A stretch of DNA of 49,727 nucleotides from an uncultured Bdellovibrionales bacterium (GTDB lineage: Bacteria; Patescibacteriota; Minisyncoccia; Moranbacterales; UBA1568). Both the position numbers and the translations under genes were made by a program. This document shows, in pieces, positions 1,191-34,590 of this stretch (positions are counted from its first letter, which is position 1; every line of letters starts with the position of its first letter). The notes beneath the pieces are model-generated. The model worked only from the letters and a program-made list of their open reading frames with translations. It was not told where the DNA came from and made no database searches. The DNA is taken from NCBI GenBank assembly GCA_964580285.1, contig CAZOKB010000008.1, positions 1-49,727 on the forward strand, read 5' to 3'.

Positions 1191-1242
1191 CTTCTTCAAC
1201 TTGTTCCTCTTATCCTATCCAAAAATCAGTCTGTCGTCAAGG

Positions 1243-1599
1243 CTATGCCTTCACTTCTTCCGCCGGGGCTTCTGTAGGAGTCTCAGCTGGAGTTTCTGTT
1301 CCTGGAGCCTCTTCAGCTGCCACTGGCTTTTCTGGCCGCTGCATTTTGATCACGTGCTTATCTCCGGTTATCACTCCTTCGCGAACCAGCAAATTGTGCA
1401 CAGAGTCAGACACTTCCGCTCCCTGACCGATCCAATAGAGCACGCGCTCTTTCTTCAACACGGTCACCTTCTTATGTGGATCATAGCTTCCGAGCATCTC
1501 AACGTGCCGCTTGCCTGGAGCCTTACCTTTTTCCTGCAAAGCAATACGGAAATACGCCTGATTCCTCTTCCCTACCCGGTTGAAACGAATGGTCAACAT
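1243..1599 (-). CDS. rpsP: 30S ribosomal protein S16 with low-complexity acidic C-terminal tail
   Basis: MLTIRFNRVGKRNQAYFRI, EMLGSYDP, YWIGQGAEVSDSVHNLL. Confidence 0.96.
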   Translation of the reverse strand: MLTIRFNRVGKRNQAYFRIALQEKGKAPGKRHVEMLGSYDPHKKVTVLKKERVLYWIGQGAEVSDSVHNLLVREGVITGDKHVIKMQRPEKPVAAEEAPGTETPAETPTEAPAEEVKA

Positions 1600-1610
1600 A
1601 TCTGCGAAAA

Positions 1611-1796
1611 TTAGAGTTTATCTCAAAATTCATGCCGAGAGAAAATCGGAGAATTTCAAGCGAAAATTATGAGAGATTCTGAAGGAATATAGTATATTTC
1701 GAAGAATTGAGCAAAATTTGCAGCTGAAATTCTCTGATTTTAGCCGGCAAGCGAATGGCTTCACTCTTGTACGGTGAATTTTGAGATAAACTCTAA
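1611..1796. mobile_element. 186-bp MITE-like foldback element with perfect 22-bp terminal inverted repeats
   Basis: ttagagtttatctcaaaattca (1611-1632) and tgaattttgagataaactctaa (1775-1796) are exact reverse complements; a second internal imperfect IR (aaaatcggagaatttca / tgaaattctctgatttt); no credible internal ORF. Confidence 0.6.
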
Positions 1797-1815
1797 CCAA
1801 AAATATACGAATTTC

Positions 1816-1844
1816 ACTGTAGCGCAACCATGAGAGATTGTCAA
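1816..1844 (-). promoter_or_regulatory. Sigma70 promoter for rpsP (TTGACA-17-TACAGT), overlapping the smc stop codon
   Basis: Read directly on minus strand; 17-bp spacer. Confidence 0.65.
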
Positions 1845-4135: not shown

Positions 4136-4250
4136 AACTGAAATCAATCAACAAAAAAACTGACGCCTTCGCACAATACTTCCCTTGATTGCATTCTTTT
4201 TTTGTTGACTGTTAACTGTTATCTGATTCAGTATATCTGATTTCCAGCGT

Positions 4251-4289
4251 AAAAAGAAGGAGAGGCGCCCGTCATTGACGTTCGCCTCT
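4251..4289 (-). terminator. Rho-independent terminator after the small-ORF pair
   Basis: agaggcg..cgtca-a-tgacg..cgcctct stem followed by ccttcttttt on minus strand. Confidence 0.65.
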
Positions 4290-4301
4290 AAACACTGTCT
4301 T

Positions 4302-4508
4302 TTACTCTTCCTCACTGAGTCCGGTCATTCTTCTGAAAAACCATACCCTATCTGCCTTCCATTCGCGCAGCGTAGCGCAGCACCGTTCCCACAACGCTGC
4401 CTGCCGGATATCCAGCCAGACGGAATAGGTGAAATGAAGCAAGAGCACAATCAGCACCGCTCCAAGCACCAAGGAGCACATGAGCTCCACTTTATCGATC
4501 CATTCCAT
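4302..4508 (-). CDS. Small single-TM hypothetical protein (68 aa, MEWIDKVELMCSLVLGAVLIVLLLHF...)
   Basis: AAGGAG RBS 7 nt upstream of ATG 4508; hydrophobic segment; downstream terminator. Confidence 0.7.
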   Translation of the reverse strand: MEWIDKVELMCSLVLGAVLIVLLLHFTYSVWLDIRQAALWERCCATLREWKADRVWFFRRMTGLSEEE

Positions 4509-4558
4509 GTCATATCTCCTTTCCTTTTTTCCATTCAATGGCATTCGAAACATTTTCT

Positions 4559-4696
4559 TTAGGACTCATGAGTATCCTCATCCTTCCCAAAATGGTGGCA
4601 TACCCAGCGCCACCAGTTTTCAATATGACCCCAACCGAGGCCAATCACGACCACCACGCTCAGAAAGATTGAGAGTTGGTCCGGAGATACCTGCAT
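4559..4696 (-). CDS. Small single-TM hypothetical peptide (45 aa, MQVSPDQLSIFLSVVVVIGLGWGHIENWWRWVCHHFGKDEDTHES); not in ORF track
   Basis: Hand-translated; gagggag RBS-like sequence upstream of ATG 4696; hydrophobic N-terminal helix; promoter upstream. Confidence 0.6.
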   Translation of the reverse strand: MQVSPDQLSIFLSVVVVIGLGWGHIENWWRWVCHHFGKDEDTHES

Positions 4697-4757
4697 GTCT
4701 GACTCCCTCTAAAAAGATTCCAACGAACCGCAGAGATACAACCCAAAAACTACCCCC

Positions 4758-4786
4758 ACCCTACAAGAGGACTCTTTTTCTGTCAA
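4758..4786 (-). promoter_or_regulatory. Putative sigma70 promoter (TTGACA-17-TAGGGT) for the small-ORF pair
   Basis: Perfect -35, 17-bp spacer, weak -10. Confidence 0.45.
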
Positions 4787-4815
4787 AGCCAAAAATTACA
4801 AAAAAGCCTGGAGTC

Positions 4816-5502
4816 TTACCATCCCTTCACTTCCAAGGCCTGTTTGGCGGCGGCGCGCTGAGCCTCTTGTTTGGAAACCCCCTCACCTTCCGCAATCAGT
4901 TCCTCTCCAATAAAAACCCCTGCAACAAAATGCCGATCATGGTCTGGCCCCCATTCCTTTAAAACCCGATACGTCGGCGTGGTACTGTAAGCTTCCTGCG
5001 CTTTTTCTTGAAAAAGACTCTTCGCATCCGCGTACAGCTTTTGATCCAGTACTTCGGGCAGATGCGAAAGCACATGGGCCACAATAAATTTTTTGGCTGC
5101 CTCGTACCCTTGATCAAGGTACAACGCTCCAATAATGGCTTCCATAGCATTCGCCACAATATACTGCCGAGCTCGACCAGTATCTTTGGCCTCACCCCGG
5201 CTCATCAGCAAAAATTCTTCAATACCGAGCTCCTTACCAATCTTCGCCAGCATTTCACCGTTCACAAGTGCGGCTCGCCAGGCGGTCATTTCACCCTCTG
5301 GTCGATCATAGCCATGAAACAAGTTCTCGGTCACCACGAGTTCGAGCACAGCATCACCAAGAAATTCCAAGCGTTCATTATGCGGCAATTTGTACCCTCG
5401 GTGCTCATTCAAATAGGAACGATGCGTGATCGCTTCCTGAAAATAACTCTTATTCTTAATCGTGAATCCGAGACGACGCTCGAAAATCGGTATATCTAAC
5501 AT
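4816..5502 (-). CDS. rnc: Ribonuclease III
   Basis: Signature HNERLEFLGDAVLEL, ANAMEAIIGALYLDQG, C-terminal dsRBD (GEGVSKQEAQRAAA). Confidence 0.98.
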   Translation of the reverse strand: MLDIPIFERRLGFTIKNKSYFQEAITHRSYLNEHRGYKLPHNERLEFLGDAVLELVVTENLFHGYDRPEGEMTAWRAALVNGEMLAKIGKELGIEEFLLMSRGEAKDTGRARQYIVANAMEAIIGALYLDQGYEAAKKFIVAHVLSHLPEVLDQKLYADAKSLFQEKAQEAYSTTPTYRVLKEWGPDHDRHFVAGVFIGEELIAEGEGVSKQEAQRAAAKQALEVKGW

Positions 5503-5599
5503 AGCGTTGTATCAACAACTCACGGTCCGTAATATTTCAAACCACTGAACGTGAGTTATGGATGCTTATAGGAAATTACTTCTAGAGAAAAAGCGCCCG

Positions 5600-6518: not shown

Positions 6519-6860
6519 TTAATCGACTCGATTCATAGCCCAGTGCGAGAGCATATGGATAAGTGAAAGAACTACGGCACCCAGTATCGCCGCCCAAAAG
6601 GTCTGTACTTCAAACCCTTTTATCAATCCGCCCAACAGCCAGAGAAGAAAGCCATTGATCACAAAGGTAAAAATGCCAAACGTCAGGAGATTGATAGGGA
6701 GAGTAAGGATAACCAGAAGCGGTTTTACAGTAATGCCAATGACCCCCCAGAGGAGAGCCAGAAGCAACGCCGTTCCAAAACCCTTCACGCTGATACCCGG
6801 AACCAAATGAGGCAATGCCAGGAATGCCAGCGCAGAAATCAACCATTTAAAAAGCAACAT
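6519..6860 (-). CDS. Phage-holin-family (YvlD-like) 4-TM membrane protein
   Basis: KPLLVILTLPINLLTFGIFTFVINGFLLWL and GFEVQTFWAAILGAVVLS pattern. Confidence 0.85.
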   Translation of the reverse strand: MLLFKWLISALAFLALPHLVPGISVKGFGTALLLALLWGVIGITVKPLLVILTLPINLLTFGIFTFVINGFLLWLLGGLIKGFEVQTFWAAILGAVVLSLIHMLSHWAMNRVD

Positions 6861-6924
6861 AGTCTATTGAATTTAAGAGTGTACGCACTCAGTATACTCC
6901 TTTCGATTCAGGAAACAACGAGCT

Positions 6925-8258: not shown

Positions 8259-11200
8259 ATGCAATTTACTCACCTTCACGTCCATACCCACTACACCCTC
8301 CTCACCGCCCTCGGCAAACCGGAAGAGCTTTTGGCGCGTGCCAAAGAAATGGGGCAGACCGCGCTCGCTATTACGGATACCTCCGCTCTCTATGGCGCGG
8401 TCGAATTCTACATGAAGGCTAAGGATTATGGCATCAAGGCCATCATTGGCGCGGAAATCTTTCTCTGCAAAGACCTCACCAGCAAAAACAATACCGCTGA
8501 AGACCGGCGCCGCAACACCCTGGTGCTGCTCGTAAAAAATGAAACGGGCTATAAGAATCTCCTCAAGATCATTTCCATTGCTCAGCTGGATGGCTTCTAC
8601 TACAAAGCCCGCGCCGATAAGAAGCTCCTCCGTCAATACAGCGAGGGCTTGATCGCTCTCTCTGGATCGCTTCAGGGCGAAGTCCCCGCTGAATTTATCT
8701 ACGGAGACTACGAGCGAGCCAAACGCGCTGCCCTCGAGTACCAGGAAATTTTCGGTCCCGGCAATTTCTATCTCGAAGTACAACCCCATTTCGACAATGA
8801 AGCACAAGCCACTGCCAACCAGGGGCTCATTGCTCTTTCTCGAGAAACCGGCATACCGCTCGTTGCCGCCAACGATGTCCACTACGTGCGCCGTGAGGAT
8901 GCCTCGGTCCAAGATACTCTCCTCTGTATCCGCGACAATAAACGGGTCGATGACCATGAACGATTCTCTATGATGTCACTCGATCTCTCACTCCGGAGTA
9001 CTGAAGACATGGTCGAAGCTTTCAAGGATTTTCCGGACGCTATTGAAAACACACAGAAAATTGCCGAGGCTTGCAACTTTTCCTTTACCTTCGGTGTCAA
9101 TCACCTCCCCTCCTACCCCCTCCCTGAAGGAGTAACCGCTGATACCTATCTCCGCAACCTCTGTGAAGAAGGTCTCCGAAAACGTTTTCCTGAACAGGTT
9201 ATTAATGAAGAACAGCGAACTCGACTCAACTACGAACTCGATGTCATTGAGAAAACTGGTTTCGCTTCCTACTTCTTGATCGTCCAGGACTTCGTCAACT
9301 GGGCCAAGAACAACGGCGTCGTCGTCGGTCCGGGCCGCGGTTCGGCCGCCGGTTCCTTTGTCGCTTACCTCACTGGCATCACCAACCTCGATCCCATCAA
9401 GTATGATCTCCTCTTTGAACGCTTCCTTAACCCGGAACGTATCTCGATGCCCGATGTCGATATGGACTTTGCTGACGATCATCGTGAAGACGTCTTGAAC
9501 TACGTCCGTGAGCGCTACGGTGCCGATCACGTCGCACAGATCATCACGTTCGGAACCATGGCCGCTCGAGCAGCGATCCGTGATGTCGGTCGTGCACTCG
9601 GTATTCCGCTCCCCCTCTGCGACCAGACTGCCAAAATGATCCCCATGTTCACGTCGATCAAAAAAGCGCTCGAGGAGGTACCGGAATTTAAAGCGCACTA
9701 TGACTCAAACGCCGAAGTGCGCCGACTCGTAGACAATGCGCAAAAAATCGAGGGGTTGTCGCGTCACACCTCCATGCATGCTTGTGGTGTGGTTATTACG
9801 AAGGATCCCGTAACTGAATACACTCCCCTCCAGCGAGTCTCCGGATCACGCGAAGGTGTGGTGACTCAATACGCTTCTTCAACTAAAGCCAATGCCGTTG
9901 AAAAAATCGGTCTCCTTAAAATGGACTTTCTCGGACTCAAAAACCTCACTATCATCCAGAACACCATTCGTATTATCCGCGCCCTCGGCAAACTTGATGC
10001 CTTCACTACAACCCTCGGTCTCGATCCAGAAAAAGCTTCCGTATCGGATATCATGGACAAACTTCCGCTTGATGATGTGGCTGCCTTCAAGGTACTTCAA
10101 GATGCTCATACCACTGGTGTTTTCCAGCTCGAATCTACCGGCATGAAACGCTACCTCAAGCAACTCAAACCCACCGTCTTCGAAGATATCATCGCTATGG
10201 TCGCCCTCTATCGTCCGGGACCGATGGACTATATTCCCGACTTCATTGGCGGCAAGCACGGTACCAAACAAGTCGAATACCTCCACCCAAAACTCGAACC
10301 GATTTTGAAGAATACGTATGGTGTCGCTGTGTATCAGGAACAACTCATGCAGATCGCCCGTGACCTGGCTGGCTTCTCCCTCGGCGAGGCCGATGTGCTC
10401 CGCAAAGCTGTCGGTAAGAAAATTAAGGAGCTCGTCGCTGAGCAACGCGTCAAATTTGTTAGTGGTTGCGTAAACAACGGCATCAAGAAAGATGTAGCCG
10501 AACACGTGTTCGATTTCATCGAGCCGTTCGCCGGCTACGGCTTCAATCGCTCCCATGCCGCCTGCTACGCGCTCATCGGCTACCAGACCGCTTACCTCAA
10601 GGCCCACTATCCGGCCGAATTCATGGCCGCCCTGCTTACGAGCGACCAGAACGATACCGATCGTATCGCTATTGAAGTCCGTGAAGCCAGGGAAATCGGT
10701 ATTGAGGTCCTCCAACCCGATGTCAACGAAAGCTTTGAGAGTTTCGCTGTGATCCGTGGAGATGATGGTATAGAACGCATCCGCTTTGGACTCCAGGCTA
10801 TCAAGAACGTTGGCTCGGTCTGCGCTGAAGAAATCGTCAAGGAACGCAAGCGTGGAGGAAAATTCAAAAGCCTGGAAGATTTCGTGGAACGCGTACAGAC
10901 CAAAGATCTTAACAAGAAATCTCTTGAAGCACTGGCTAAAGTTGGTGCTCTCGATCAGCTTGGAGAACGTGAACAAATCCTCGAAAGTATTGATGCCATC
11001 GTGCGACACAGCAAACAAGCTTCGACTATCGTAGCGTCTCATACCCAAAGCCTCTTTGGATCGATGCCCTTATCCAAGCCCACCATTCACCTTATCCAGG
11101 CAGCCCCAGCCCCCAAGCAACAAAAACTTTCTTGGGAAAAAGAACTGCTCGGTCTCTATATTACCGATCACCCGGCCTCGGAATACCGTCATTACTTTGC

Positions 11201-11789
11201 CAAAACCACCGTTCCCTTAAACGATTTGGAAAAGCGAGAAAATGAATCCCGTATCCGTATTGGCGGTTTAGTAACAGCCGTCCGCCGAGTCATGACCAAG
11301 AATGGTAATCCTATGTTTTTCATCGGTCTTGAAGATTTAACCGGCCGAACGGAAGTCTTGGTCTTTGGGAAGACCGCCGAACAAACAGAAGGATTTTGGA
11401 AAGAAGATGATATTGTTATTCTTGATGTGCGTATTTCTAACAAAGATGGTCAGCTCCGCTGTATTGCCGAGAGTGCCGAACGTATCTCCTTAGACACTCT
11501 GAAACAGTTCGAACGCGTGCGCGTCACTCACGAGAAAACAGAGACCGAAAAGAAAATGGCTCAAGAAAAACTTGCTTCGGTTCGAAAGCTCGCTATCACC
11601 ATGGACTCGACAGCTGATTCTCACCGTATCGAACACCTCTCCGCCTTTCTGAAACAGGCACCCAAAGGTGATACCAAGGTCATCGTGAAGCTTCATGGAT
11701 CCACTATCGAGACCCCTTTCTGTATCGATCCGAGTAAAGATATCCTTGCCGCTCTCAGTGCTCTTGAAGGAGTAGAATCTGTTTTATAG
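8259..11789 (+). CDS. dnaE: DNA polymerase III alpha subunit
   Basis: PHP domain (HLHVHTHY, ANDVHY), GPGRGSAAGS, MPDVDMDF, GLLKMDFLGL, GFNRSHAACY, C-terminal OB fold. Confidence 0.98.
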   Translation: MQFTHLHVHTHYTLLTALGKPEELLARAKEMGQTALAITDTSALYGAVEFYMKAKDYGIKAIIGAEIFLCKDLTSKNNTAEDRRRNTLVLLVKNETGYKNLLKIISIAQLDGFYYKARADKKLLRQYSEGLIALSGSLQGEVPAEFIYGDYERAKRAALEYQEIFGPGNFYLEVQPHFDNEAQATANQGLIALSRETGIPLVAANDVHYVRREDASVQDTLLCIRDNKRVDDHERFSMMSLDLSLRSTEDMVEAFKDFPDAIENTQKIAEACNFSFTFGVNHLPSYPLPEGVTADTYLRNLCEEGLRKRFPEQVINEEQRTRLNYELDVIEKTGFASYFLIVQDFVNWAKNNGVVVGPGRGSAAGSFVAYLTGITNLDPIKYDLLFERFLNPERISMPDVDMDFADDHREDVLNYVRERYGADHVAQIITFGTMAARAAIRDVGRALGIPLPLCDQTAKMIPMFTSIKKALEEVPEFKAHYDSNAEVRRLVDNAQKIEGLSRHTSMHACGVVITKDPVTEYTPLQRVSGSREGVVTQYASSTKANAVEKIGLLKMDFLGLKNLTIIQNTIRIIRALGKLDAFTTTLGLDPEKASVSDIMDKLPLDDVAAFKVLQDAHTTGVFQLESTGMKRYLKQLKPTVFEDIIAMVALYRPGPMDYIPDFIGGKHGTKQVEYLHPKLEPILKNTYGVAVYQEQLMQIARDLAGFSLGEADVLRKAVGKKIKELVAEQRVKFVSGCVNNGIKKDVAEHVFDFIEPFAGYGFNRSHAACYALIGYQTAYLKAHYPAEFMAALLTSDQNDTDRIAIEVREAREIGIEVLQPDVNESFESFAVIRGDDGIERIRFGLQAIKNVGSVCAEEIVKERKRGGKFKSLEDFVERVQTKDLNKKSLEALAKVGALDQLGEREQILESIDAIVRHSKQASTIVASHTQSLFGSMPLSKPTIHLIQAAPAPKQQKLSWEKELLGLYITDHPASEYRHYFAKTTVPLNDLEKRENESRIRIGGLVTAVRRVMTKNGNPMFFIGLEDLTGRTEVLVFGKTAEQTEGFWKEDDIVILDVRISNKDGQLRCIAESAERISLDTLKQFERVRVTHEKTETEKKMAQEKLASVRKLAITMDSTADSHRIEHLSAFLKQAPKGDTKVIVKLHGSTIETPFCIDPSKDILAALSALEGVESVL

Positions 11790-21372: not shown

Positions 21373-22818
21373 TTATTGTGCTGTTTCGTATTGGTGAGCC
21401 AGCGCAAGCATACCTTCTTCATCAAACCACTTCGCCTGAAGCTGGCCTCCCAGTGGCAGATCCTTGCCATCCTCTTCTATAGTTCCGATCGGAAACGAAA
21501 GCGCTGGCACTCCAGCCAAATTAGCGGTCACCGTATAGATATCGGATAGGTACATTTTAAGAGGATCATCTGCCTTGGCCCCAAATTTGAAGGCAACTTC
21601 CGGAGCGGTTGGTGAGAAAATAAAATCCACTGTCTCATAGGCGCGCTCAAAATCCTGTCGAATCAACTGGCGTACCCGCTGCGCTTTTTTGTAATACGCA
21701 TCGTAGTACCCGGCAGACAACGTATACGTTCCCAGCATAATGCGTTTCTTGACCTCAGCCCCAAATCCATAGGCTCGACTATCCAGATACGTTTCCAAAA
21801 GTCGGCTCGTCGTCGCCATGCGGTCTTTTTCATCATTCACCCGTAATCCATACTTAATGCCATCAAAACGAGCGAGATTCGAACTGACTTCCGAGGGCAT
21901 AAGAATATAGTAAACCGGCAGCGCGTATTCTGCGTGCGGCAGAGAAATCTCCTTCACAGAAACTCCGAGCGATTTGAAACGCTCGAGCGCCACCTCAGCC
22001 ACCGCCCGGACTCTCGGATCCAAGGCATCAGAGAAATACTCTTTCGGGATACCGACTGTCTTCCTGTGCATATCCAGATCAAGAAAATCTTCAAAGCGCT
22101 TACTCGGAAGATCAGCCGTGGTAGCATCAAGCCGATCAAAACCAGCAATGCGCGACAGCACAATTGCCGCATCTTCGACCGTCTTCGCGAACGGACCGAT
22201 CTGATCAAGACTGGAGGCCATGGCTAACAAACCAGAGCGTGACACACGACCATAGGTCGGCTTCAAACCCACCAACCCACAGAATGATGCTGGCTGACGA
22301 ATGGATCCGCCCGTATCTGATCCCAAAGACCACACCGCCATATCAGCTGCTACTGCTGCTGCCGAACCACCCGATGAACCACCCGGAACACGTTCTGGAT
22401 CAACAGGATTCTTCGTCTTCTGATAGGCACTCGTTTCGGTTGATGAGCCCATGGCAAATTCATCCATATTGGTCTTACCCAGAGCCACCATATCAGCCGC
22501 GCGCAAATGCTCAATCACGGTCGCATCATACGGAGCAATATAATTATCCAGGATCCTCGAACCAGCGGTGGTCCGCTCACCAGCCATACAGATGTTATCT
22601 TTGATAGCACCGGGTATGCCCGCCAAGAGATCAATACCTTCTCCACGCATGATCTTCTTATCAACCGCTTCCGCCTCTCTCAAGGCAGCTTCTTTACGCA
22701 CCGTAAGAAAAGCCTGGATCTCCGACTCCTTCGATGCAATCGTTGTAAAATACCGTTCAGTCAACTCGACAGCCGTCAGGTTTCCCGATTTCAGTTGTTC
22801 ATGCAGTTCGCGAATCAT
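21373..22818 (-). CDS. gatA: Asp/Glu-tRNA amidotransferase subunit A
   Basis: GKTNMDEFAMGSSTE, VPGGSSGGSAAAV, GSDTGGSIRQPAS, RIMLGTYTLSAGYYDAYY. Confidence 0.98.
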   Translation of the reverse strand: MIRELHEQLKSGNLTAVELTERYFTTIASKESEIQAFLTVRKEAALREAEAVDKKIMRGEGIDLLAGIPGAIKDNICMAGERTTAGSRILDNYIAPYDATVIEHLRAADMVALGKTNMDEFAMGSSTETSAYQKTKNPVDPERVPGGSSGGSAAAVAADMAVWSLGSDTGGSIRQPASFCGLVGLKPTYGRVSRSGLLAMASSLDQIGPFAKTVEDAAIVLSRIAGFDRLDATTADLPSKRFEDFLDLDMHRKTVGIPKEYFSDALDPRVRAVAEVALERFKSLGVSVKEISLPHAEYALPVYYILMPSEVSSNLARFDGIKYGLRVNDEKDRMATTSRLLETYLDSRAYGFGAEVKKRIMLGTYTLSAGYYDAYYKKAQRVRQLIRQDFERAYETVDFIFSPTAPEVAFKFGAKADDPLKMYLSDIYTVTANLAGVPALSFPIGTIEEDGKDLPLGGQLQAKWFDEEGMLALAHQYETAQ

Positions 22819-22828
22819 GGAGGCTGTA

Positions 22829-23116
22829 TTAAAATACCGATTTTACTTTGAGAAATTCATCTTTGGATTCAGGGAAGTCTTGCACGATACCTTCTCGCAC
22901 TGCTAGCGGAGCCTTGAGAGCCACATCGCTCCGCGCCACATCGCTCCGACCAGTGATGTTTCCTATCACTTCCGTGTCTTCAGTCTCCACTTTTGATAAT
23001 GCTTCTACCCATGCCAAAACCGTCGAAAGGTCTTTTTGATACTTTTCGACTTCCGCCTCCGACAGCCCAATCCTAGCAAGGAGAGCGATATGCTGTATTT
23101 CTTCTTTGGTTAACAT
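22829..23116 (-). CDS. gatC: Asp/Glu-tRNA amidotransferase subunit C
   Basis: MLTKEEIQHIALLARIGL ... FLKVKSVF; directly upstream of gatA. Confidence 0.92.
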   Translation of the reverse strand: MLTKEEIQHIALLARIGLSEAEVEKYQKDLSTVLAWVEALSKVETEDTEVIGNITGRSDVARSDVALKAPLAVREGIVQDFPESKDEFLKVKSVF

Positions 23117-23393
23117 AGCTTCAATATTTTTCAATTTCTCATTTCAAATATATTTTTCCAGTATCCGTCCACTCTAACACTGTTGTACCATCTTTCGCAA
23201 AGTGATGCGAGGCGTGATCGATGATCCACTCACTGCTTGTTCATTGAGCATTTTAACACTCTCTGCTTTTTCAAGCGACCACTCTGAACGGAGATTAGCG
23301 GGCGACACCAAATACGCCCTGCCTCATCGGTCGCTATTACAACCTTCTTCAACAGTATCAGTTGCAAAATGATTGTTTGAAAATGAAGAATTG

Positions 23394-23870
23394 CTACAAA
23401 ATTTTCATACCATCAATCTTCTCTACTCTTCGAATAAATCTCTCTTCGTTAAGGAACCTTGTCTGTAGAAAAATTTCGATTGCCTTATAAACATCCTTTG
23501 TCTCAATAAAACGCGTAGCAATAGCCAATGCATTGATGTCATCGTGTTCTCTATAGTTTTTTATAATTTCAAAGTCACCGCCATACCAAACACCACATCG
23601 AACATGCGAGTATCTATTTAAAACGATTGACTCACCCATTCCAGACCCTCCAAAAACAATAGCTCTTTGTTTTGGGTACTTCGAAAGCTCACACGCGAGA
23701 GGATGTAATATATCAGGATAATCATCATGCTGATCAAATATCTCTGGACCAAAGTCAGATATACTAAATCCTCTTTCTATTAAAAACAACTTGACGTTCT
23801 CTTTCAAGAAATACCCAGCATGATCACCACCGAGATAAATTAGAGATTTCTCTTTTTCCATAGCTACCAC
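23394..23870 (-). CDS. rpiB: Ribose-5-phosphate isomerase B family protein (Glu-base GGSGxGE type)
   Basis: GGDHAGYFLKE, DDYPD, FGGSGMGESIVLNR, REHDDINAL. Confidence 0.88.
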   Translation of the reverse strand: MVAMEKEKSLIYLGGDHAGYFLKENVKLFLIERGFSISDFGPEIFDQHDDYPDILHPLACELSKYPKQRAIVFGGSGMGESIVLNRYSHVRCGVWYGGDFEIIKNYREHDDINALAIATRFIETKDVYKAIEIFLQTRFLNEERFIRRVEKIDGMKIL

Positions 23871-23872
23871 AA

Positions 23873-25081
23873 CTATACTTTGAATTCATTGACTAAAACT
23901 TCCGTTCCAAGACCGCTTCCAAAAAATCTTTCTTTATCATCAGAAGTAAGTTGCGATGTCCAATTTGAAGCACCGCCATCAATCAAGCTTATTTCTTGGT
24001 CATTACGATTTGTTGCCTTGATCTTGAAGCAAATTCCGTCATAATAACCTATCCCGGCAGTTCTGGATAAATCATAGACGAATCGAACATTCGGGTAGTC
24101 ATTTCTCAGTACCTGAACCTGCTCTCTATCCATCTTCTTTAGTGTACTTATGGCACGATTCATGCTCTTATCCGGATTAAGAAGACTAAAACTATGAATA
24201 TCATCAATTTTTCCTGGCAATCTTATACCAGCAATCTCCAAAATATCAATACCCTTCTTCCGCGTACCCTCAATAACATCCCTTCTACTGATAACCCCTT
24301 CTGCAATAAGACTGTTTATTACATTGATATCCGATAAATAGACCGTGATACTATGTAGAGAATACTCACCCATATTATTCAGTTTTTCAAAACATCCAAG
24401 CCAATAATGCAGGTGCATGAGTTGTTCGTCTTTTTCAAATTCGTATCTGCCGATATCACGACCTGCAGACGTAAGCGTAAATGATGAGAAGTGCTGACGC
24501 AGGTGTTTTTGTGTAAAAACCTGTCCCCTCAATTCTCTGTGTGCATTTGCAAGATGAACGCGATCTATGGCCCGTCTCTCGGAAGAAAACCATCTCTTGT
24601 CATCCATTCGTCTTTTCGCAGACTCTAGGGCCATCACAACTGAAGTATCATTTACAACTTCGACCGGCCTAATCGTTTGTAATATAGTTTTCGGATCGAT
24701 CTTGGTCAAAACACTACTCACTCCAATAGGAGCCACTGGAGAAATCTCAACAAAATCAAAAGAGTCTGGTAAATCCTTTATTAGCATTAACTCCAATTTC
24801 AATCGCTCTTTCGCATCAATATCTGATGGACGAGAAAATCTGTTTTCGCGATAGTTATCCATAAGATCAGAAGCAGAAAGCTCCCTAATCTTTTTCTCAT
24901 ACATATTCATTAAGGCACTCCCAAGTTCCGAAAAACTCAACTCCCCCATCTTCTCCATAGCATTTCTTGTTGGTTCATCGAAACGTTTTTCAATAAGATC
25001 AGCATTCTGCGATTCAACCTTATCATCCTTCGCTTGTTTGACTCCTGCCGGATCCTTATAAAAAGGGTTTTCAATATTCAT
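23873..25081 (-). CDS. Hypothetical protein with class II aaRS (HisRS/HisZ-like) catalytic-core motifs, no anticodon domain
   Basis: HRELRGQVF..HFSSF (motif-2-like), DLSRTAGIGYYDGICF (like the HisRS RGLDYYTG loop), IDGG and GSGLGTE (motif-3-like). Confidence 0.5.
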   Translation of the reverse strand: MNIENPFYKDPAGVKQAKDDKVESQNADLIEKRFDEPTRNAMEKMGELSFSELGSALMNMYEKKIRELSASDLMDNYRENRFSRPSDIDAKERLKLELMLIKDLPDSFDFVEISPVAPIGVSSVLTKIDPKTILQTIRPVEVVNDTSVVMALESAKRRMDDKRWFSSERRAIDRVHLANAHRELRGQVFTQKHLRQHFSSFTLTSAGRDIGRYEFEKDEQLMHLHYWLGCFEKLNNMGEYSLHSITVYLSDINVINSLIAEGVISRRDVIEGTRKKGIDILEIAGIRLPGKIDDIHSFSLLNPDKSMNRAISTLKKMDREQVQVLRNDYPNVRFVYDLSRTAGIGYYDGICFKIKATNRNDQEISLIDGGASNWTSQLTSDDKERFFGSGLGTEVLVNEFKV

Positions 25082-26334
25082 AAGGTACCAACATTATATG
25101 TTATCAATTCATCTAGTCGAGATTTTATTTCCTCGATTTCTTCCATATTTTTCGTAAAATAAGAAAACTCAAAAATCGGGGAAGGGGTGTTTGGGTATGT
25201 CTTCAGCGTATCCCCGATTTTTGCCATGAGTTTGAAATAATTGATGCCTTTGATTTGAGAAAATTTCTCGTATCCATATACACCCAAAAGTACCCCGGGC
25301 GACTGTATGTCAGGATAATAAAGCGCATGATAGTTTATCCCGAACGGACTGAAATCTTTCGGGATAGATTCACCAAGCCAATTCGAATACATAAGATCAA
25401 TCATATCAATGCCATACACTCTATCATACGTCTCATGAATCAGCGCTCCAGCCATCCTCCCAGCAATTTCTATAAGATACGGGATGCCGTCCTTTATTCT
25501 AAATTCCGCATGAAAAGGAGCGTACCCGAAGCCCAATACGTCCACGACATTTTTTAATGCATCCTTAACGGCGGATGATTCAACTTCGCTCAGTTGAGCC
25601 GGGATATAACTTGCCACTTGAGTGAAATACGGCTCTTCCCCCATAATAAACTCTATAGAGCCGACAATCGAAACATCACCGCGAGAGACAAACCCGTCAA
25701 CAGAAATCATTTTTCCTGGTATGTATTCTTCTACAAGCATATTACCTGAAAAATACCGAAATGACTCCCTGATTTCCCGATTCACTGTTTTTGAGATCCT
25801 GTCAGCCAAATCGTCATAATCAAAATTATTGTCACGAATCATAAAGACTCCGTGGCTTGTCGTTCCGAATTGTGGCTTAATAACACAAGGTTTTGGAAAT
25901 CGTTCCAAAACAATACTATCCTCACGATCGTAGATATTGAACGGAGCAAACTTTGGCTGCATCACCTTCCCGGATGTAGCCACTTTTGTTCGCATAGCCA
26001 ACTTATTACTCGAAGTGCACCTTGCTGCCAATTGCCCGATACCATTACAACCCAATAAAGCAGCGAGATCTGCGGTAGCCACCACAAGATCGTCACTAAA
26101 AGTTCCAATAGCATCTATCTTTAAACCATTCTTCTGAATAAAAAAGAATGTTTTCTCTACCATATTTTTGGCGTCAAATACATCGGTAATTATGACGTCG
26201 GTATCCGCAATGTACTTCTTAAAAAAATCCTTAGGCTCGCTTGCCACCATGATGATGCGATAGCCCTTCTCTTTTGCTTTCTTCAGAAGAAATTCTTTTG
26301 CCGTACAGTGTTCAACTAGAAGAATGGTTTTCAT
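25078..26334 (-). CDS. ATP-grasp ligase, L-amino-acid ligase-like
   Basis: NKLAMRTK, PCVIKPQFGTTSHGV, LVEEYIPGKMISVDG, FHAEFRI, LIEIAGRMAG. Confidence 0.88.
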   Translation of the reverse strand: MKTILLVEHCTAKEFLLKKAKEKGYRIIMVASEPKDFFKKYIADTDVIITDVFDAKNMVEKTFFFIQKNGLKIDAIGTFSDDLVVATADLAALLGCNGIGQLAARCTSSNKLAMRTKVATSGKVMQPKFAPFNIYDREDSIVLERFPKPCVIKPQFGTTSHGVFMIRDNNFDYDDLADRISKTVNREIRESFRYFSGNMLVEEYIPGKMISVDGFVSRGDVSIVGSIEFIMGEEPYFTQVASYIPAQLSEVESSAVKDALKNVVDVLGFGYAPFHAEFRIKDGIPYLIEIAGRMAGALIHETYDRVYGIDMIDLMYSNWLGESIPKDFSPFGINYHALYYPDIQSPGVLLGVYGYEKFSQIKGINYFKLMAKIGDTLKTYPNTPSPIFEFSYFTKNMEEIEEIKSRLDELITYNVGTL

Positions 26335-26348
26335 ATTTGATCACATCC

Positions 26349-27368
26349 CTAATTTACAGCACATTCTCCGAGAGATATTATGTTAGATCGTGTATCCAGT
26401 TTCACCACAACTCCCAATGGAAAAGTCAGGATAGGTTTCGTATGTCCGCAATCCACATTCGTTAAAGTCGGTATATTATACTTTTTGGAAATCTCTAGGA
26501 AAATACTTTCTAGAGATCTCTTCTTTTCATTTATCTCTTCAAAGCTGCCGCTTGGTTTAGCAAAAATAAGTCCATTTATCTTGCTGAAAATTCCCTTTCG
26601 CTCCAGCTCAATGAGATATCTTTCATACCAATCCGTAGATAATCCTTCTTCCTCAAGAAAAAGAATGGCTCCGGTTACATCGAAGAAACCATCTTCGTGC
26701 ATCAGCATCGAAAATGTCTGCAAGTTTCCGCCGAAAAGAAGCCCCTCTGTTTCCATCTTTGGGCCAAATGACTTCATTGCTGGTGATTCTTGCATAATCA
26801 GATTCTTCGTATCATCCCTCCCCCAGTACTGATTATCTATCGTGTACATTTTCGAAAATGGAAACGTATCACCGCATCCCGCCTGACCGCTGACAATTTT
26901 TTCAAAATGTTCAAACGTAAACGAAACAGCCCCTTCAAACTCACCGAAGCTTGGAAGTAGTGTTGGGCCATGAAAAGTTACTAATTCGCTTTTTGACGTA
27001 ATCATCAATAAAAGAGTCGTGATATCAGAATAACCACAAAATATTTTTGGGTTCCTTCTTATAAGCTCATAATCGAGCAGGGAAAGCACCGCATTTGCCG
27101 TTAACCCCCCGGTTGAACAAACAATGGCGGAAACTTCAGAATCAAGAAAAGCATCGTGAATATCTGCCGCCCTTTGCTCGGCCGTTCCACCACTATATCC
27201 ATCAGTCGCCAATGCACTTGGCATCATTTTTACCTTGTAACCTTTTCTTTCCAAGAAGCCTATTGCTCTTTGTGTTCTTTCGGAAAATCTCACAATATCA
27301 GAAGACGGGCTTACGATAGCTATCGTGTCACCCCTCTTCAGCGCTCTCGGTTTGATGTAATTTTTCAT
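26349..27368 (-). CDS. S66 family serine peptidase (LD-carboxypeptidase / microcin C immunity MccF-like)
   Basis: LKRGDTIAIVSPSS, GYSDIT (catalytic Ser), LFGGNL, LFLEE (Glu), CGHTKP (His). Confidence 0.92.
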   Translation of the reverse strand: MKNYIKPRALKRGDTIAIVSPSSDIVRFSERTQRAIGFLERKGYKVKMMPSALATDGYSGGTAEQRAADIHDAFLDSEVSAIVCSTGGLTANAVLSLLDYELIRRNPKIFCGYSDITTLLLMITSKSELVTFHGPTLLPSFGEFEGAVSFTFEHFEKIVSGQAGCGDTFPFSKMYTIDNQYWGRDDTKNLIMQESPAMKSFGPKMETEGLLFGGNLQTFSMLMHEDGFFDVTGAILFLEEEGLSTDWYERYLIELERKGIFSKINGLIFAKPSGSFEEINEKKRSLESIFLEISKKYNIPTLTNVDCGHTKPILTFPLGVVVKLDTRSNIISLGECAVN

Positions 27369-28189
27369 ATTTCAACTGTTAAAAAAAGTTCGGCCTCATC
27401 CTGAATCAAGCGTTTCTGATATAAAAATATCGAATAGCCCGCATACTTTAAATTCTCATTAAAAAGCTTGTAGAAATATATCGCTCGCTCTCTGATTTTA
27501 TTCTCCTGCGCTTCGGTCAAATCTGAAAACCTACCTCCTAGCAAGATATCAACGTAAGCTTCAATCTCATTTGCAACATCTAAATACGCATGATCTTCCT
27601 CGTAAAAAAGCTCAAGTATCTTCGCATTTTTATCAGCAACAGTCTCAAACAAGGCTTTCCAGGATTTTTTGTCTCTGATTGTTAAAGGCGTTCCAATCGT
27701 CTCCGATACTTTCTCAACAACATCCTTCGGCGGAGTTTCTCGATAATAGATAGGGACAGCTGCGAGAATGCCGCCTGGTTTCAAAACACGCAGGTACTCG
27801 GAAACCGCTTTTTCTTTATCAGATATAAAAGAAGTCACATTGCTACACCAGACCAAATCGAAAGAATCAGCCTCAAACGGGAGATCCGCAGCATCAGCTC
27901 TCAAAAAATCGACTCTCTCATGAGCCCCTTGAACTTCAGCATATACCTTCGCTTCAGCGATGGAAGATTCATTAACATCTACTCCGATTACCTCGCATCC
28001 CGTCAAGAGACTAAGATTCACACTTGTGAACCCGGTATTACTACCAATTTCAAGTACTTTTTTCGAGGCATTTAAAAAAGCATTAACCGCGACAGAATGT
28101 ACCGTCTTTATGCCCCCAGATGGCCGATTTCTCTCTTTGATAAAACCAACAAATTCGGAATAATTCATTTGATGAACATTCTGCGCCAT
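27365..28189 (-). CDS. Class I SAM-dependent methyltransferase
   Basis: VLEIGSNTG, IGVDVN, ADAADLPFEADSFDLVW, RVLKPGG; start reset to ATG 28189, 11 nt after the upstream stop. Confidence 0.9.
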   Translation of the reverse strand: MAQNVHQMNYSEFVGFIKERNRPSGGIKTVHSVAVNAFLNASKKVLEIGSNTGFTSVNLSLLTGCEVIGVDVNESSIAEAKVYAEVQGAHERVDFLRADAADLPFEADSFDLVWCSNVTSFISDKEKAVSEYLRVLKPGGILAAVPIYYRETPPKDVVEKVSETIGTPLTIRDKKSWKALFETVADKNAKILELFYEEDHAYLDVANEIEAYVDILLGGRFSDLTEAQENKIRERAIYFYKLFNENLKYAGYSIFLYQKRLIQDEAELFLTVEI

Positions 28190-28200
28190 ACGATATATAT

Positions 28201-29358
28201 TTACGGTTTTGGGAGGTGATGTCCTCGGGGAATATGTGTTGCTTCCCATATATACGGTAACTGCAATACCCATTGTACATACCGCTGCCATCCGAGACCG
28301 AAGCCCGAAGTTTTTTGGTAATTCCCCTGAAGCCTCGTCTGAATATACGGATCGTAGTCTCCTTGCGGCAGATTGAATGTCTTCGCCTTTTCCTTCAACG
28401 CTTCCGAGCTCGAAATGCGCGTTCCGCTTCCGACCGTCTCACGATACCCACACAGGATAAAATCCGCGTTCTCGGCGAGCGGAGTGCCGTCCTCGTTCTC
28501 ATTAAGTTCGTTGTGATAGAAAGGAATCTGCAGCAACGGGAATTTCGTCACGATGACGTGCTTGCCGAATATCTCCGTAAGTCTTATTTCTTCCCATGCA
28601 CCGAAATTCTTCAGACTGAATTCCTTGTACACATCATTTCCGGTCTCCCTATGGAGAGCCTCAAGCGCCTCCTTGAAGGTGATCGTAACGATATTTCCCT
28701 CTAAAAAAGCACCTGGAAGCTCTTCAAACTTTGCATCGCCGATAAAATATTTCAGACTTTCTCTCTCATTGACTATGAGGTATTTCGTAATATGACGCAT
28801 CAAACCGAGAAAGATATCGATATTCTGGTCGAAAGAAACCTTCCCCTCGAATTCGATGTGCTGGAATTCCGAAAGGTGACAAAAGTCCGCTTTTTCTTTC
28901 CTGAATGAATTGTATATGGAAAATACTTTATCGATATTCTGTTTCAGAAGCCGGAGCTCGAGATAGAATTGTGAGCTTTCCGAAAGGAAAACATTCCGCT
29001 CATTATCGAACCAGGCTACATCAACTGGGAGCGTATCGGTCGTGTAATCCAGCATTTTCCCGGCATACACTTCTCCCGGGGATGAAATCATGAGCGTCGT
29101 AAGGGGAAGATTGCACCACTCGGCACCGATCGATCGGAAATACTCCACCGCTCCGAAAAATACACCGTTGTCTATCTTATGGAGATGATAAAAATATTCT
29201 GGATCCTGAAAAATCTTTGCAATCCTTCCTGTTGTGATTCCTTCGCTGAAATCGAATTCTCTGACGTCTTCAATGGGCTGGAATACGTTATTTCCGTTGT
29301 ACCTGATCTGTTTCTTGCCGCCATCGGATAGAGCTGAATACGGGCTAAGATTATTCAT
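28201..29358 (-). CDS. AsnRS/AspRS-like class IIb catalytic domain lacking the anticodon-binding domain (asparagine-synthetase AS-AR-like architecture)
   Basis: LSESSQFYLE, motif 2 FRKEKADFCHLSEFQHIEFE, ETVGSGTR, motif 3 SGFGLGWQRYVQW; no recognisable N-terminal OB fold. Confidence 0.85.
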   Translation of the reverse strand: MNNLSPYSALSDGGKKQIRYNGNNVFQPIEDVREFDFSEGITTGRIAKIFQDPEYFYHLHKIDNGVFFGAVEYFRSIGAEWCNLPLTTLMISSPGEVYAGKMLDYTTDTLPVDVAWFDNERNVFLSESSQFYLELRLLKQNIDKVFSIYNSFRKEKADFCHLSEFQHIEFEGKVSFDQNIDIFLGLMRHITKYLIVNERESLKYFIGDAKFEELPGAFLEGNIVTITFKEALEALHRETGNDVYKEFSLKNFGAWEEIRLTEIFGKHVIVTKFPLLQIPFYHNELNENEDGTPLAENADFILCGYRETVGSGTRISSSEALKEKAKTFNLPQGDYDPYIQTRLQGNYQKTSGFGLGWQRYVQWVLQLPYIWEATHIPRGHHLPKP

Positions 29359-29388
29359 ACTGATACCGTTGAAAAACTAAAGAATTTT

Positions 29389-31563
<2,175 letters not shown>

Positions 31564-33864: not shown

Positions 33865-34590
33865 ATGCTGAAAAGACTGTTTAGTATCATCTTGCTCGCT
33901 TTGAGCCTGCAGGTCCAAGCCGCTCCGGTTCTCCTCGAGGACTGGACCGATTTTTCCGACTGGACGCTCGGCACCCTGAGCAATCCGGGTCGCTTCACCA
34001 GCCAGAGCTCGGTAACGTCTTTTGGTCACGCTTTCACCCCGACCGAGGGCAGTAAGCTGCTCCGCATTACCGGCGGGTTCGACGCTCGTGAGCCATCGAT
34101 CATCTACCGGTCATTCCATTTCAATGACAGCATCCTCGCCTTCGACTGGTTCACGATCTCCCGGGACTCGCTGCCGGATAACGATGCCTCCTATTTTTTG
34201 TTGAGCAAGGACGGAGTCACTTTCACCGCCTACCTCTTGGCGGATGTGGCTTCGCTCGGCGGCATTACCGGCACGGCCACCGGCTGGAACACCAGTTACC
34301 TCAACCTCCTCGGGAGCGGCGACCTCTTTGTCGGCTTTGCGGCTATCGACACAGGCATTGAAGGTGGGGCAATCTTCTTCGGTACGGACAATCTCCGTCT
34401 CGTCGATGAGATCCCTGGTACTGCGCCATCGCCCGATGGCAAAGTGACCCAGGTGACCACGTTCGATTTTGGTCCCAGCACTCCGCCTCCGGGAGGTGCT
34501 GTTCCCGAACCGGGTAGCGCCTTCCTGGTACTCGCCGGCCTCCTGGGTATCGGCGGCGCTGCTCGCCGTAAGCAAGACCGCCTCCACTGA
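33865..34590 (+). CDS. Secreted PEP-CTERM sorting-domain protein
   Basis: Signal peptide MLKRLFSIILLALSLQVQA; C-terminal VPEPGSAFLVLAGLLGIGGAARRK (VPEP + TM + basic cluster) after a Pro/Gly/Thr linker. Confidence 0.92.
   Translation: MLKRLFSIILLALSLQVQAAPVLLEDWTDFSDWTLGTLSNPGRFTSQSSVTSFGHAFTPTEGSKLLRITGGFDAREPSIIYRSFHFNDSILAFDWFTISRDSLPDNDASYFLLSKDGVTFTAYLLADVASLGGITGTATGWNTSYLNLLGSGDLFVGFAAIDTGIEGGAIFFGTDNLRLVDEIPGTAPSPDGKVTQVTTFDFGPSTPPPGGAVPEPGSAFLVLAGLLGIGGAARRKQDRLH

Follow-up and report, generated by a model that had tools for sequence, protein, structure and literature searches.

What would a bacterium regarded as metabolically minimal do with two relatives of aminoacyl-tRNA synthetases (aaRS) that lack anticodon domains, an S-adenosylmethionine (SAM)-dependent transferase, a peptidase, a ligase and a sugar-phosphate isomerase packed into one block, and how did it come by them? 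The question is raised by contig CAZOKB010000008.1 (assembly GCA_964580285.1), of which positions 1 to 49,727, hereafter the window, were analysed. In this Patescibacteria-like genome (candidate phyla radiation, CPR), six genes stand between ligA and the gatC-gatA pair and encode, in order, an asparaginyl-tRNA synthetase-like protein (AsnRS-like), a predicted methyltransferase (MT), an S66 peptidase, an ATP-grasp ligase, a histidyl-tRNA synthetase-like protein (HisRS-like) and a ribose-5-phosphate isomerase B-type protein (RpiB). By mapping the genes that adjoin ligA in related metagenome contigs, and by comparing the island proteins with homologues in Patescibacteria and on plasmids of other phyla, we find that the block is an insertion into a conserved backbone and that the best characterised relatives of its AsnRS-like protein, MT and S66 peptidase lie in nucleotide-antibiotic clusters. 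We give about even chances to the hypothesis that this horizontally inserted mosaic operon encodes a compact pathway of the agrocin 84/microcin C type for a decorated aminoacyl-adenylate mimic, together with an MccF-like hydrolase.

Results

The block is an insertion into the ligA-gatC-gatA backbone

A LigA-based scan of metagenome contigs, followed by mapping of the adjoining genes, provided relatives whose LigA is 48-74% identical to that of the window. On about 60 related contigs with downstream sequence, ligA is followed by gatC, gatA, an open reading frame (ORF) of 222 aa and nusG, the same backbone as in the window, and the ligA-gatC spacer measures 33-155 nt in the closest relatives; the six-gene block occurs in none of the approximately 60 ligA relatives mapped. 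Because these relatives pass directly from ligA to gatC-gatA, the block is an insertion into a conserved backbone. An earlier, sequence-only reading of the window had proposed horizontal acquisition and had suggested asking whether relatives join ligA directly to gatC, as they do. Acquisition by horizontal transfer is supported because the block is inserted in this conserved backbone and because the cassette is kept elsewhere in other genomic contexts, between different flanks. Base composition agrees, the block lying below its flanks in GC content: the five downstream genes have a GC of 0.36-0.41 and the AsnRS-like gene 0.46, against 0.50 for ligA, 0.51 for gatA and 0.476 for the whole window (flank range 45-54%), so that the contrast first reported (30-33% against 55-62%) is present at about half the size claimed. 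Two other explanations were tried and rejected, namely carriage by a phage (relatives of the HisRS-like or AsnRS-like proteins were not found on viral contigs) and an anti-phage defence system (PADLOC gave generic methyltransferase matches only).

Three island proteins related to those of agrocin 84 and microcin C

The domain assignments made from the letters alone are upheld by Pfam and NCBIfam, and comparison with characterised proteins places three of the six more closely. The AsnRS-like protein matches PF00152 on the class IIb catalytic core only, with no oligonucleotide-binding (OB) anticodon domain found, and it retains motif 2 (FRKE) and motif 3 (GFGLGWQR) unimpaired. Its identity to AgnA, encoded on the agrocin 84 plasmid pAgK84, is 27% (E 2e-30) and that to a Xenorhabdus homologue 30%, and it scores below the equivalog cut-offs for both AsnRS and the asparagine synthetase AsnA. 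Archaeal-type asparagine synthetase A (PDB 3p8t), which it also resembles, shares with it a class IIb core without an anticodon domain, but the window protein is far under the corresponding equivalog cut-off (NF005055, 104 against 389 bits). By these similarities, it is a relative of the AgnA family with a class IIb core.

The MT is 42% identical to AgnB1 of pAgK84 over 98% of its length, and pAgK84 gave the best match when plasmids were searched with it by tblastn; it is also 25% identical to E. coli MccD, whose structure (5fcd) is its only full-length match in the PDB. Its assignment to the AgnB1/MccD family of class I SAM-dependent transferases is supported by these matches, and the group that it would transfer is either methyl or, as with MccD, 3-amino-3-carboxypropyl. 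MccD transfers the 3-amino-3-carboxypropyl group, which is decarboxylated by MccE1 (PMC8323819). Several related Patescibacterial loci carry a LysA-like pyridoxal phosphate (PLP) decarboxylase that falls below the lysA cut-off, is nearest to diaminopimelate (DAP) decarboxylases and is 27% identical to the N-terminal domain of MccE. Another locus, on an 852-kb Patescibacteria contig (L112), has a pyruvoyl-type SAM decarboxylase (PF02675, with the ESH self-cleavage motif; 9166-9513) between its AsnRS-like gene and an AgnB1/MccD-type MT gene; after these, the locus continues with APH-HAD fusion, NUDIX and JmjC-type genes and is a larger variant of the cluster. By analogy with MccD plus MccE1, either arrangement would supply an aminopropyl group.

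The S66 peptidase is, by all scores compared, closer to MccF and AgnC5 than to the murein tetrapeptide LD-carboxypeptidase LdcA, a member of the same superfamily: its BLAST scores are 167 bits with MccF, 134 with AgnC5 and 92 with LdcA, its PDB matches reach 1e-49 with MccF against 1e-21 with LdcA, and it lies below the LdcA equivalog cut-off (NF008424, 109 against 378 bits). Identity is 33.5% to E. coli MccF and 28% to AgnC5. The catalytic triad is intact (equivalents of MccF S118, E243 and H311), and the protein has both an MccF-type loop of about 30 residues, which LdcA lacks, and a Trp at the position of MccF W186; that Trp aligns in LdcA too, so that the loop, and not the Trp alone, separates MccF from LdcA. 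In MccF the Trp186 position stacks on adenine, and stand-alone MccF homologues give resistance to microcin C (PMC8323819). By analogy, the window S66 peptidase would serve in self-resistance.

Cassette relatives in Patescibacteria and a mosaic history

In every complete Patescibacteria locus compared, HisRS-like, S66, MT and AsnRS-like genes occur together, despite a shuffled order and different flanks. The Paceibacterota locus L001/L010 consists of MT, S66, ATP-grasp, HisRS-like, RpiB and AsnRS-like genes; the same set is found in L009, with a second S66 gene and LysE nearby, and in the Saccharibacteria locus L011, with an S51 peptidase. L013 has MT, HisRS-like, S66 and AsnRS-like, and these four recur rearranged in the Shapirobacteria loci L014 and L015/L016, the latter with a PLP decarboxylase. 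On the gene contents of the compared loci, the core is MT, HisRS-like, S66 and AsnRS-like, to which ATP-grasp and RpiB are a joint accessory pair. The sequence-only reading had left RpiB outside the core set, a view not borne out: rpiB follows the HisRS-like gene also in L001/L010, L009, L011 and L012, and to judge from this constant position it is a part of the cassette and no bystander.

Two types of AsnRS-like protein are found in these loci. That of the window is only 24-33% identical to the AsnRS-like proteins of HisRS-like-bearing cassettes, is not the orthologue that most of these bear, and sits at the opposite end of the operon. The cassette-type proteins are 55-75% identical among themselves (L014 being more divergent, at 35-39%) and 30-41% identical to AgnA. 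The window type is abundant in its own right: the window protein is 88% identical to P0025, from a Minisyncoccota metagenome-assembled genome, whose gene is also followed by MT and S66; at least 120 close 90%-clusters exist, of which the best 120 measure about 380 aa and have identities of 54% or more; and the neighbourhood AsnRS-like, MT, S66 was present in all six Patescibacteria loci sampled. The earlier supposition that such genes would be unusual in a CPR bacterium does not survive these counts. In two loci of the window type, a HisRS-like gene adjoins S66 (hidden Markov model (HMM) matches of 4e-91 and 3e-99).

Nucleotide comparison joins the two types. The window segment with AsnRS-like and MT genes (29376..27376) is 84% identical to L017, and the segment from MT through HisRS-like (28291..23838) is 85% identical to L004, the closest cassette relative. 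L004 retains two relics (6790-6894 and 11221-11244): upstream of its MT gene stand the last 28 or so codons of a window-type AsnRS-like gene, and its own, cassette-type AsnRS-like gene is fused to the opening 8 codons of rpiB. A search of the window for traces of the cassette type found none. By these comparisons the island is a mosaic, and because L004 keeps relics of both the window-type gene and rpiB, the common ancestor of the window and L004 is best reconstructed with both AsnRS-like genes and rpiB, each descendant having kept one AsnRS-like gene. Since the two types were reciprocally lost between the window and L004, we infer that they are interchangeable parts of one system.

One locus, L018, encodes an AsnRS-like::MT fusion protein; upstream of the fusion (1161-5580) are a ThiF-family gene, an aromatic amino-acid ammonia-lyase and a PaaK-like adenylating enzyme, in an expanded variant of the cluster. 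NUDIX hydrolase genes recur at distances of a few kb from the cluster, both in pAgK84 and in three loci of Patescibacteria (L001, L017, L021 and L112 taken together); these recurrent neighbours may mark a link to nucleotide chemistry, or may be coincidence.

The HisRS-like protein, the ATP-grasp ligase and RpiB

The HisRS-like protein has no Pfam match above the cut-off and no match to the HGTP anticodon domain (PF03129). A Foldseek search with its predicted structure, a check proposed earlier, was informative: the AlphaFold model (AF2; predicted local distance difference test (pLDDT) 77.7) matches HisRS and HisZ cores best (E 1e-13 to 1e-11, TM 0.5-0.6), and the protein ends just past the segment equivalent to motif 3 (residues 389-398 of 402). 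With the HisRS catalytic domain and HisZ it shares a class IIa core fold, and with HisZ also the lack of an anticodon domain and of the motif-3 arginine; identity to both is only 12-16%, and the window gene is linked instead to S66, MT and AsnRS-like genes. A hisG gene was not recognised on inspecting the list of window ORFs, most of which had no domain search. When compared with E. coli HisRS by hhalign, the motif-3 region alone aligned, and hmmsearch with the HisRS-like profile gave no match to the prolyl-tRNA synthetase (ProRS)-like proteins of the Xenorhabdus and Streptomyces clusters described below. The family is large, a profile search returning 2079 representative proteins at E <= 1e-3, and has no Pfam model; short homologues (about 300 aa) in L006, L007 and a Chroococcidiopsis plasmid stand in unrelated contexts and offered no clue to function.

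The ATP-grasp protein (PF13535, 5.7e-22) has as its nearest structures the L-amino-acid ligase BL00235 (3vot, 9e-18) and BacD (4e-10), and is 23-24% identical to two ATP-grasp proteins of the Bacillus pseudomycoides plasmid cluster described below. It shares the ATP-grasp_4 fold with the L-amino-acid ligases (BL00235, BacD/YwfE) at low identity and is far under the NCBIfam cut-off for BacD (37 against 850 bits); by fold and nearest structures it is of the L-amino-acid-ligase type. RpiB (PF02502, 1.9e-29) exceeds the cut-off of TIGR00689 (101.8 against 88.3 bits), is under that of the rpiB equivalog (67.7 against 138.65), and has RpiB proteins, including that of M. tuberculosis, as its nearest PDB structures; it looks like a competent sugar-phosphate isomerase of the RpiB/LacAB family.

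Related gene clusters in other phyla

On pAgK84 of Rhizobium rhizogenes K84, agnB1 comes directly after agnA and is itself succeeded by agnB2, which encodes a resistant leucyl-tRNA synthetase (LeuRS), and agnC5 is annotated as MccF-like. The agnA product, labelled 'agrocin 84 synthetase', is an anticodon-less homologue of AsnRS. The window repeats the succession of anticodon-less AsnRS-like gene and SAM enzyme gene (with an 11-nt gap). Agrocin 84 also has, in AgnC5, an MccF-like S66 protein and, in AgnC1, a second aaRS-like protein of class IIa; the window has an S66 protein homologous to AgnC5 and, in the HisRS-like protein, a class IIa-like core that may be an analogue of AgnC1. AgnA is proposed to form a phosphoramidate bond, and AgnC1 is remotely ProRS-like (PMC8323819). 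By BLAST against AgnA, AgnB1, AgnC1, AgnC3, AgnC4 and AgnC5, the window proteins match only AgnA, AgnB1 and AgnC5. The resistant LeuRS (AgnB2) and the exporter (AgnG) of agrocin 84 are absent from the window island and its immediate flanks, agnC2-C4, C6, C7, D, E and F have no counterpart in the island (Pfam detected no tailoring domains of the agnC2-C4/C6/C7/D/E/F type in the six proteins), and ATP-grasp and RpiB are extra in the window. With the mcc system of E. coli, which makes microcin C, the window has in common an MccD-family SAM enzyme and an MccF-family peptidase; the decarboxylation performed by MccE is echoed in related CPR loci (PLP or SAM decarboxylase) and not in the window, in which the MccA peptide, the MccC pump and the MccE acetyltransferase were not found. 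Microcin C synthesis uses the E1-like MccB, whereas in the window the adenylate-forming enzyme would be an aaRS paralogue.

Less familiar relatives lie on plasmids. The plasmid NZ_CP007624 of B. pseudomycoides 219298 (L114, 119-131 kb; L022/L024) bears an unannotated candidate cluster for an aaRS inhibitor, with ATP-grasp, an extra gltX, an MT, a HisRS-like homologue, a major facilitator superfamily (MFS) protein, S66, an aminotransferase and a QueC-like gene, and, some 15 kb further on, an S-adenosylhomocysteine (SAH) hydrolase, an AgnB1-like MT (40%), an AgnA-like gene and another ATP-grasp gene. The HisRS-like protein has a true homologue there (29% identity, HMM 1e-98), annotated as a 'hypothetical protein', and the S66 protein of the cluster is 31% identical to that of the window. 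The cluster differs from the window in its extra glutamyl-tRNA synthetase (GluRS), MFS exporter, aminotransferase, QueC-like protein and SAH hydrolase, in lacking RpiB, and in spreading its genes over about 25 kb; the AgnA-like gene is split by the origin of the record and apparently frameshifted. A megaplasmid of Xenorhabdus bovienii CS03 carries AsnA-like, MT, LD-carboxypeptidase, nucleoside phosphorylase-family, VOC, GloA, extra leuS, ProRS-like and MFS genes, and a plasmid of Streptomyces sp. NBC_01707 carries AsnRS-related, MT, ProRS-like, LD-carboxypeptidase, P450 and MFS genes, with molybdopterin and condensation-domain genes as well. The order AsnRS-like, MT, S66 of these two clusters is that of the window (S66 being further on in Streptomyces); their class IIa partner is ProRS-like, not HisRS-like, and they have neither ATP-grasp nor RpiB.

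The trio of AsnRS-like, MT and S66 genes thus recurs in Xenorhabdus, Streptomyces, Bacillus and Patescibacteria, the co-occurrence in unrelated phyla that the sequence-only reading had proposed to look for, and two class II aaRS-like cores (one IIb, AsnRS-like, and one IIa-like) with a SAM enzyme and an S66 protein are, by these comparisons, a recurrent architecture. That reading did not recognise the gene combination as a characterised pathway; the island is a relative of the described but biochemically unsolved agn system and of the Xenorhabdus, Streptomyces and Bacillus clusters. In the literature we found no described CPR system, and on the biochemistry of AgnA and AgnB1 reviews only. Spare aaRS genes and exporters are the usual signature of clusters for aaRS inhibitors (PMC8323819), and the extra LeuRS and GluRS genes of the Xenorhabdus and Bacillus clusters point, by analogy, to aaRS inhibitors, that is, to adenylate mimics.

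Layout of the island, its borders and other features of the window

The island comprises six intact, co-oriented ORFs on the minus strand (23394-29358), with ligA 30 nt upstream and gatC 259 nt downstream. Three of the junctions are gaps (11, 14 and 2 nt) and at the other two the genes overlap by 4 nt; gene order, count, spacing and common orientation are as first described, the ORF coordinates giving identical gaps and overlaps (Table 1). The reading frame of the MT gene is open up to 28291, and its homologues are 270-274 aa long.

Table 1. Positions in the window of the island genes, the flanking backbone genes and the border repeat
Feature	Coordinates	Strand	Remarks
AsnRS-like (385 aa)	29358..28201	-	PF00152 core at residues 122-378
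Methyltransferase (MT; 274 aa from ATG at 28189)	28189..27365	-	Methyltransf_11/25/31
S66 peptidase (339 aa)	27368..26349	-	Peptidase_S66 + S66C
ATP-grasp ligase (418 aa)	26334..25078	-	ATP-grasp_4
HisRS-like (402 aa)	25081..23873	-	AlphaFold/Foldseek; no Pfam match above cut-off
RpiB (158 aa from GTG; probable ATG at 23861)	23870..23394	-	LacAB_rpiB, PF02502
ligA, backbone gene upstream of the insertion	31545..29389	-	
gatC-gatA, backbone genes downstream of the insertion	21373..23134 (gatC 23134..22829)	-	
Imperfect 15-nt inverted repeat, left copy	29359..29373		between ligA stop and AsnRS-like start; TTCAACGGTATCAGT / ACTGATACTGTTGAA pair
Imperfect 15-nt inverted repeat, right copy	23348..23362		about 30 nt past the RpiB stop, inside the 259-nt spacer

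At the borders we found no integrase, tRNA gene, long repeat, flanking direct repeats or att-like sites, only a marginal 15-nt inverted repeat whose copies share 14 of their 15 letters (E ~0.01 for a comparison of the two junction segments) and which, as a suggestive feature only, could be a recombination scar or chance. Apart from its repeat copy, the spacer between RpiB and gatC (23135-23393) does not resemble the stretch between ligA and gatC in L029, the closest relative. Within gatC, at 22920-22948, a 14-nt unit, GCCACATCGCTCCG, is perfectly duplicated in tandem, the two copies starting 15 nt apart. Elsewhere in the window, an ORF of 241 aa (33865-34590, plus strand) runs counter to the type IV pilus genes around it. 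Its GC is 0.59, with a local peak of 0.62, where the whole window has 0.476, and the encoded protein begins with a signal-peptide-like segment and carries a PEP-CTERM motif (PF07589, 22.3 bits), which is unexpected in a Patescibacteria-like genome; the ORF may be a second foreign gene.

Discussion

A proposed compact pathway for an aminoacyl-adenylate mimic

From the insertion, the homologies, the recurrent linkage of the genes and the preservation of catalytic motifs in the AsnRS-like and S66 proteins, we infer the following steps for the agrocin 84/microcin C-type pathway to which we have given about even chances. The AgnA-like AsnRS core would bind ATP and an Asn/Asp-like acid or amide and form an adenylate or an N-acyl-phosphoramidate link, and the AgnB1/MccD-like SAM enzyme would decorate the intermediate with a methyl or a 3-amino-3-carboxypropyl group. 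The HisRS-like core would fill the place that ProRS-like proteins have elsewhere (AgnC1 and others), selecting or activating the aminoacyl part or merely binding an adenylate-like intermediate; the ATP-grasp ligase of the L-amino-acid-ligase type would attach an amino acid such as a carrier residue; RpiB would feed or isomerise a pentose phosphate; and the MccF/AgnC5-like S66 protein would cleave an aminoacyl-N bond, either in self-protection or as a step of maturation. What stands of the aminoacyl-nucleotide product first suggested is the homology of the AsnRS-like, MT and S66 proteins to AgnA, AgnB1 and AgnC5, that of MT and S66 to MccD and MccF, and the L-amino-acid-ligase type of the ATP-grasp protein.

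A number of observations weigh against such a pathway. The agrocin 84 pathway is itself unsolved, the roles of AgnA, AgnB1 and AgnC5 being proposals (2021 review PMC8323819). In a neighbour-joining tree with one outgroup, which can do no more than separate the two CPR types of AsnRS-like protein into distinct clades, the window type falls in a clade apart from, and sister to, AgnA. The HisRS-like protein lacks the motif-3 Arg (replaced by Val; segment GLGTEVL), has GGASN in place of GGRYD and has lost the HisA and HisB motifs; of the earlier claim of two anticodon-less aaRS-like enzymes, the absence of an anticodon domain holds for both proteins and the word enzyme is unproven for this one, which, to judge from its motifs, may bind rather than catalyse. 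Its profile also has no detectable sequence relation to AgnC1 (hhalign probability 0.3%), so that, given its modelled class IIa fold, the relation between the two may be one of analogy and not of homology. The island has neither the PLP decarboxylase nor the SAM decarboxylase of related loci, no ThiF domain in its six proteins and no BLAST match to MccB, and RpiB has no explained role in the pathway. Exporters and resistant aaRS were found neither in the island nor in the ligA and gatC-gatA flanks, the other window ORFs being mostly without a Pfam search, and the remark in the sequence-only reading that the cluster shows no exporter or precursor peptide is correct for the island and its immediate flanks: the sole MccA-like candidate, a non-ATG ORF of 13 or 32 codons in the RpiB-gatC spacer that ends in Asn (MDGYWKNIFEMRN), is probably a chance ORF, and the island holds no convincing precursor peptide. 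Finally, the AsnRS-like/MT/S66 trio is common in Patescibacteria, a wide presence that could point to a physiological rather than an antibiotic role, and some related loci adjoin the cell-wall genes Ddl, M15 peptidase, MurD-like and MurL.

A more specific scheme, in which the conserved quartet would be a modular, peptide-independent route to poisons of aaRS, is speculative and in this detailed form rather unlikely. The AsnRS-like protein would use asparagine as the nitrogen donor for an N-P bond on AMP, the chemistry of MccB carried out on a free amino acid; the SAM enzyme would decorate the phosphate, with aminopropyl in loci that have a PLP or SAM decarboxylase; S66 would remove the aspartyl part and leave an adenosine 5'-phosphoramidate; and the class IIa-like partner, HisRS-like here and ProRS-like elsewhere, would load its own amino acid onto that nitrogen and in this way determine the target aaRS. 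Ultra-small episymbionts would turn such compounds on hosts or competitors.

Alternative explanations

The same genes could instead make a small amino-acid amide or peptide that contains no nucleotide, a prospect unlikely on balance, though the least unlikely of the rivals. The AsnRS-like protein would then work as AsnA does, a beta-aspartyl-AMP being attacked by an amine, after which the SAM enzyme would methylate or aminopropylate the product, ATP-grasp would add a residue and S66 would turn it over, yielding a solute, a polyamine conjugate or a peptide antimetabolite. The resemblance to archaeal-type AsnA (NF005055 and 3p8t, above) agrees with this, as do the dipeptide-forming ligases nearest to the ATP-grasp protein, the SAM and LysA-like decarboxylases of related loci, which also suit polyamine-type chemistry, and the amino-acid-type exporters (LysE and EamA) near some cassettes. 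The core trio, however, finds its best characterised relatives in nucleotide-antibiotic clusters (AgnA, AgnB1/MccD and MccF/AgnC5), the extra LeuRS and GluRS of the Xenorhabdus and Bacillus clusters suggest adenylate mimics, and S66 retains the MccF-type loop and the Trp at the adenine-stacking position. The loop, with S66 scores about twice as high for MccF and AgnC5 as for LdcA, also weakens the earlier alternative of cell-wall peptide remodelling or recycling, which we keep as improbable: S66 would be an LD-carboxypeptidase acting on muropeptides, ATP-grasp and AsnRS-like proteins would add and amidate a side-chain or bridge residue, and the decarboxylase of relatives would be LysA. Membership of S66 in the LdcA family (NF008424, 109 bits), the nearness of the decarboxylases to DAP decarboxylases, and Ddl, Peptidase_M15, MurD-like and MurL beside some loci are what such a module would have, but the decarboxylases score below the lysA cut-off, the cell-wall neighbours vary between loci, the same trio occurs on plasmids with extra aaRS genes and exporters, and remodelling would leave the MccD/AgnB1-type SAM enzyme, the HisRS-like core, RpiB and the SAM decarboxylase without a role.

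Somewhat more improbable again is a purely protective or salvage island, which would detoxify or recycle aminoacyl-nucleotide toxins of hosts or competitors and synthesise nothing. The microcin C resistance given by stand-alone MccF homologues (PMC8323819), the lack of an exporter and a resistant aaRS in the island, and the exposure of episymbionts to host metabolites, which we suppose, would all suit it; conservation of three ATP-dependent ligase-type proteins and a SAM enzyme along with S66 does not, and the adjacency, even fusion, of AgnA-type and AgnB1-type genes is a signature of biosynthesis. Modification of a macromolecule is the explanation we find hardest to credit. Anticodon-less class II paralogues are known to modify proteins, as EpmA modifies EF-P, and in such a case the aaRS paralogue would aminoacylate a protein or RNA that is then methylated, with S66 reversing the modification. 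Weak EpmA/GenX matches (E 1.6e-4) are in line with this, and the HisRS-like protein without its motif-3 Arg could be a HisZ-like binding or adaptor subunit; yet the EpmA similarity is marginal and confined to motif 2, no target gene is linked to the cluster, and the closest functional relatives are all proteins of small-molecule pathways.

Conclusions

The agnA/agnB1/agnC5 set, usually with a second class II aaRS-like core, emerges as a module that extends across Proteobacteria, Actinobacteria and Firmicutes and is abundant in Patescibacteria. Its compact CPR versions, of four to six genes, offer a minimal gene set for studying the synthesis of aminoacyl-phosphoramidate warheads, and B. pseudomycoides 219298 and X. 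bovienii CS03 are cultivable carriers in which the chemistry could be studied; the large HisRS-like family (more than 2000 representatives, no Pfam model) gains a genomic context. If the product is an aaRS inhibitor, the island would be a rare predicted pathway of antibiotic type in bacteria seen as metabolically minimal, and, if true, this would bear on the dealings of episymbionts with their hosts and rivals: CPR bacteria may produce, or otherwise deal with, a poison in the guise of an activated amino acid.

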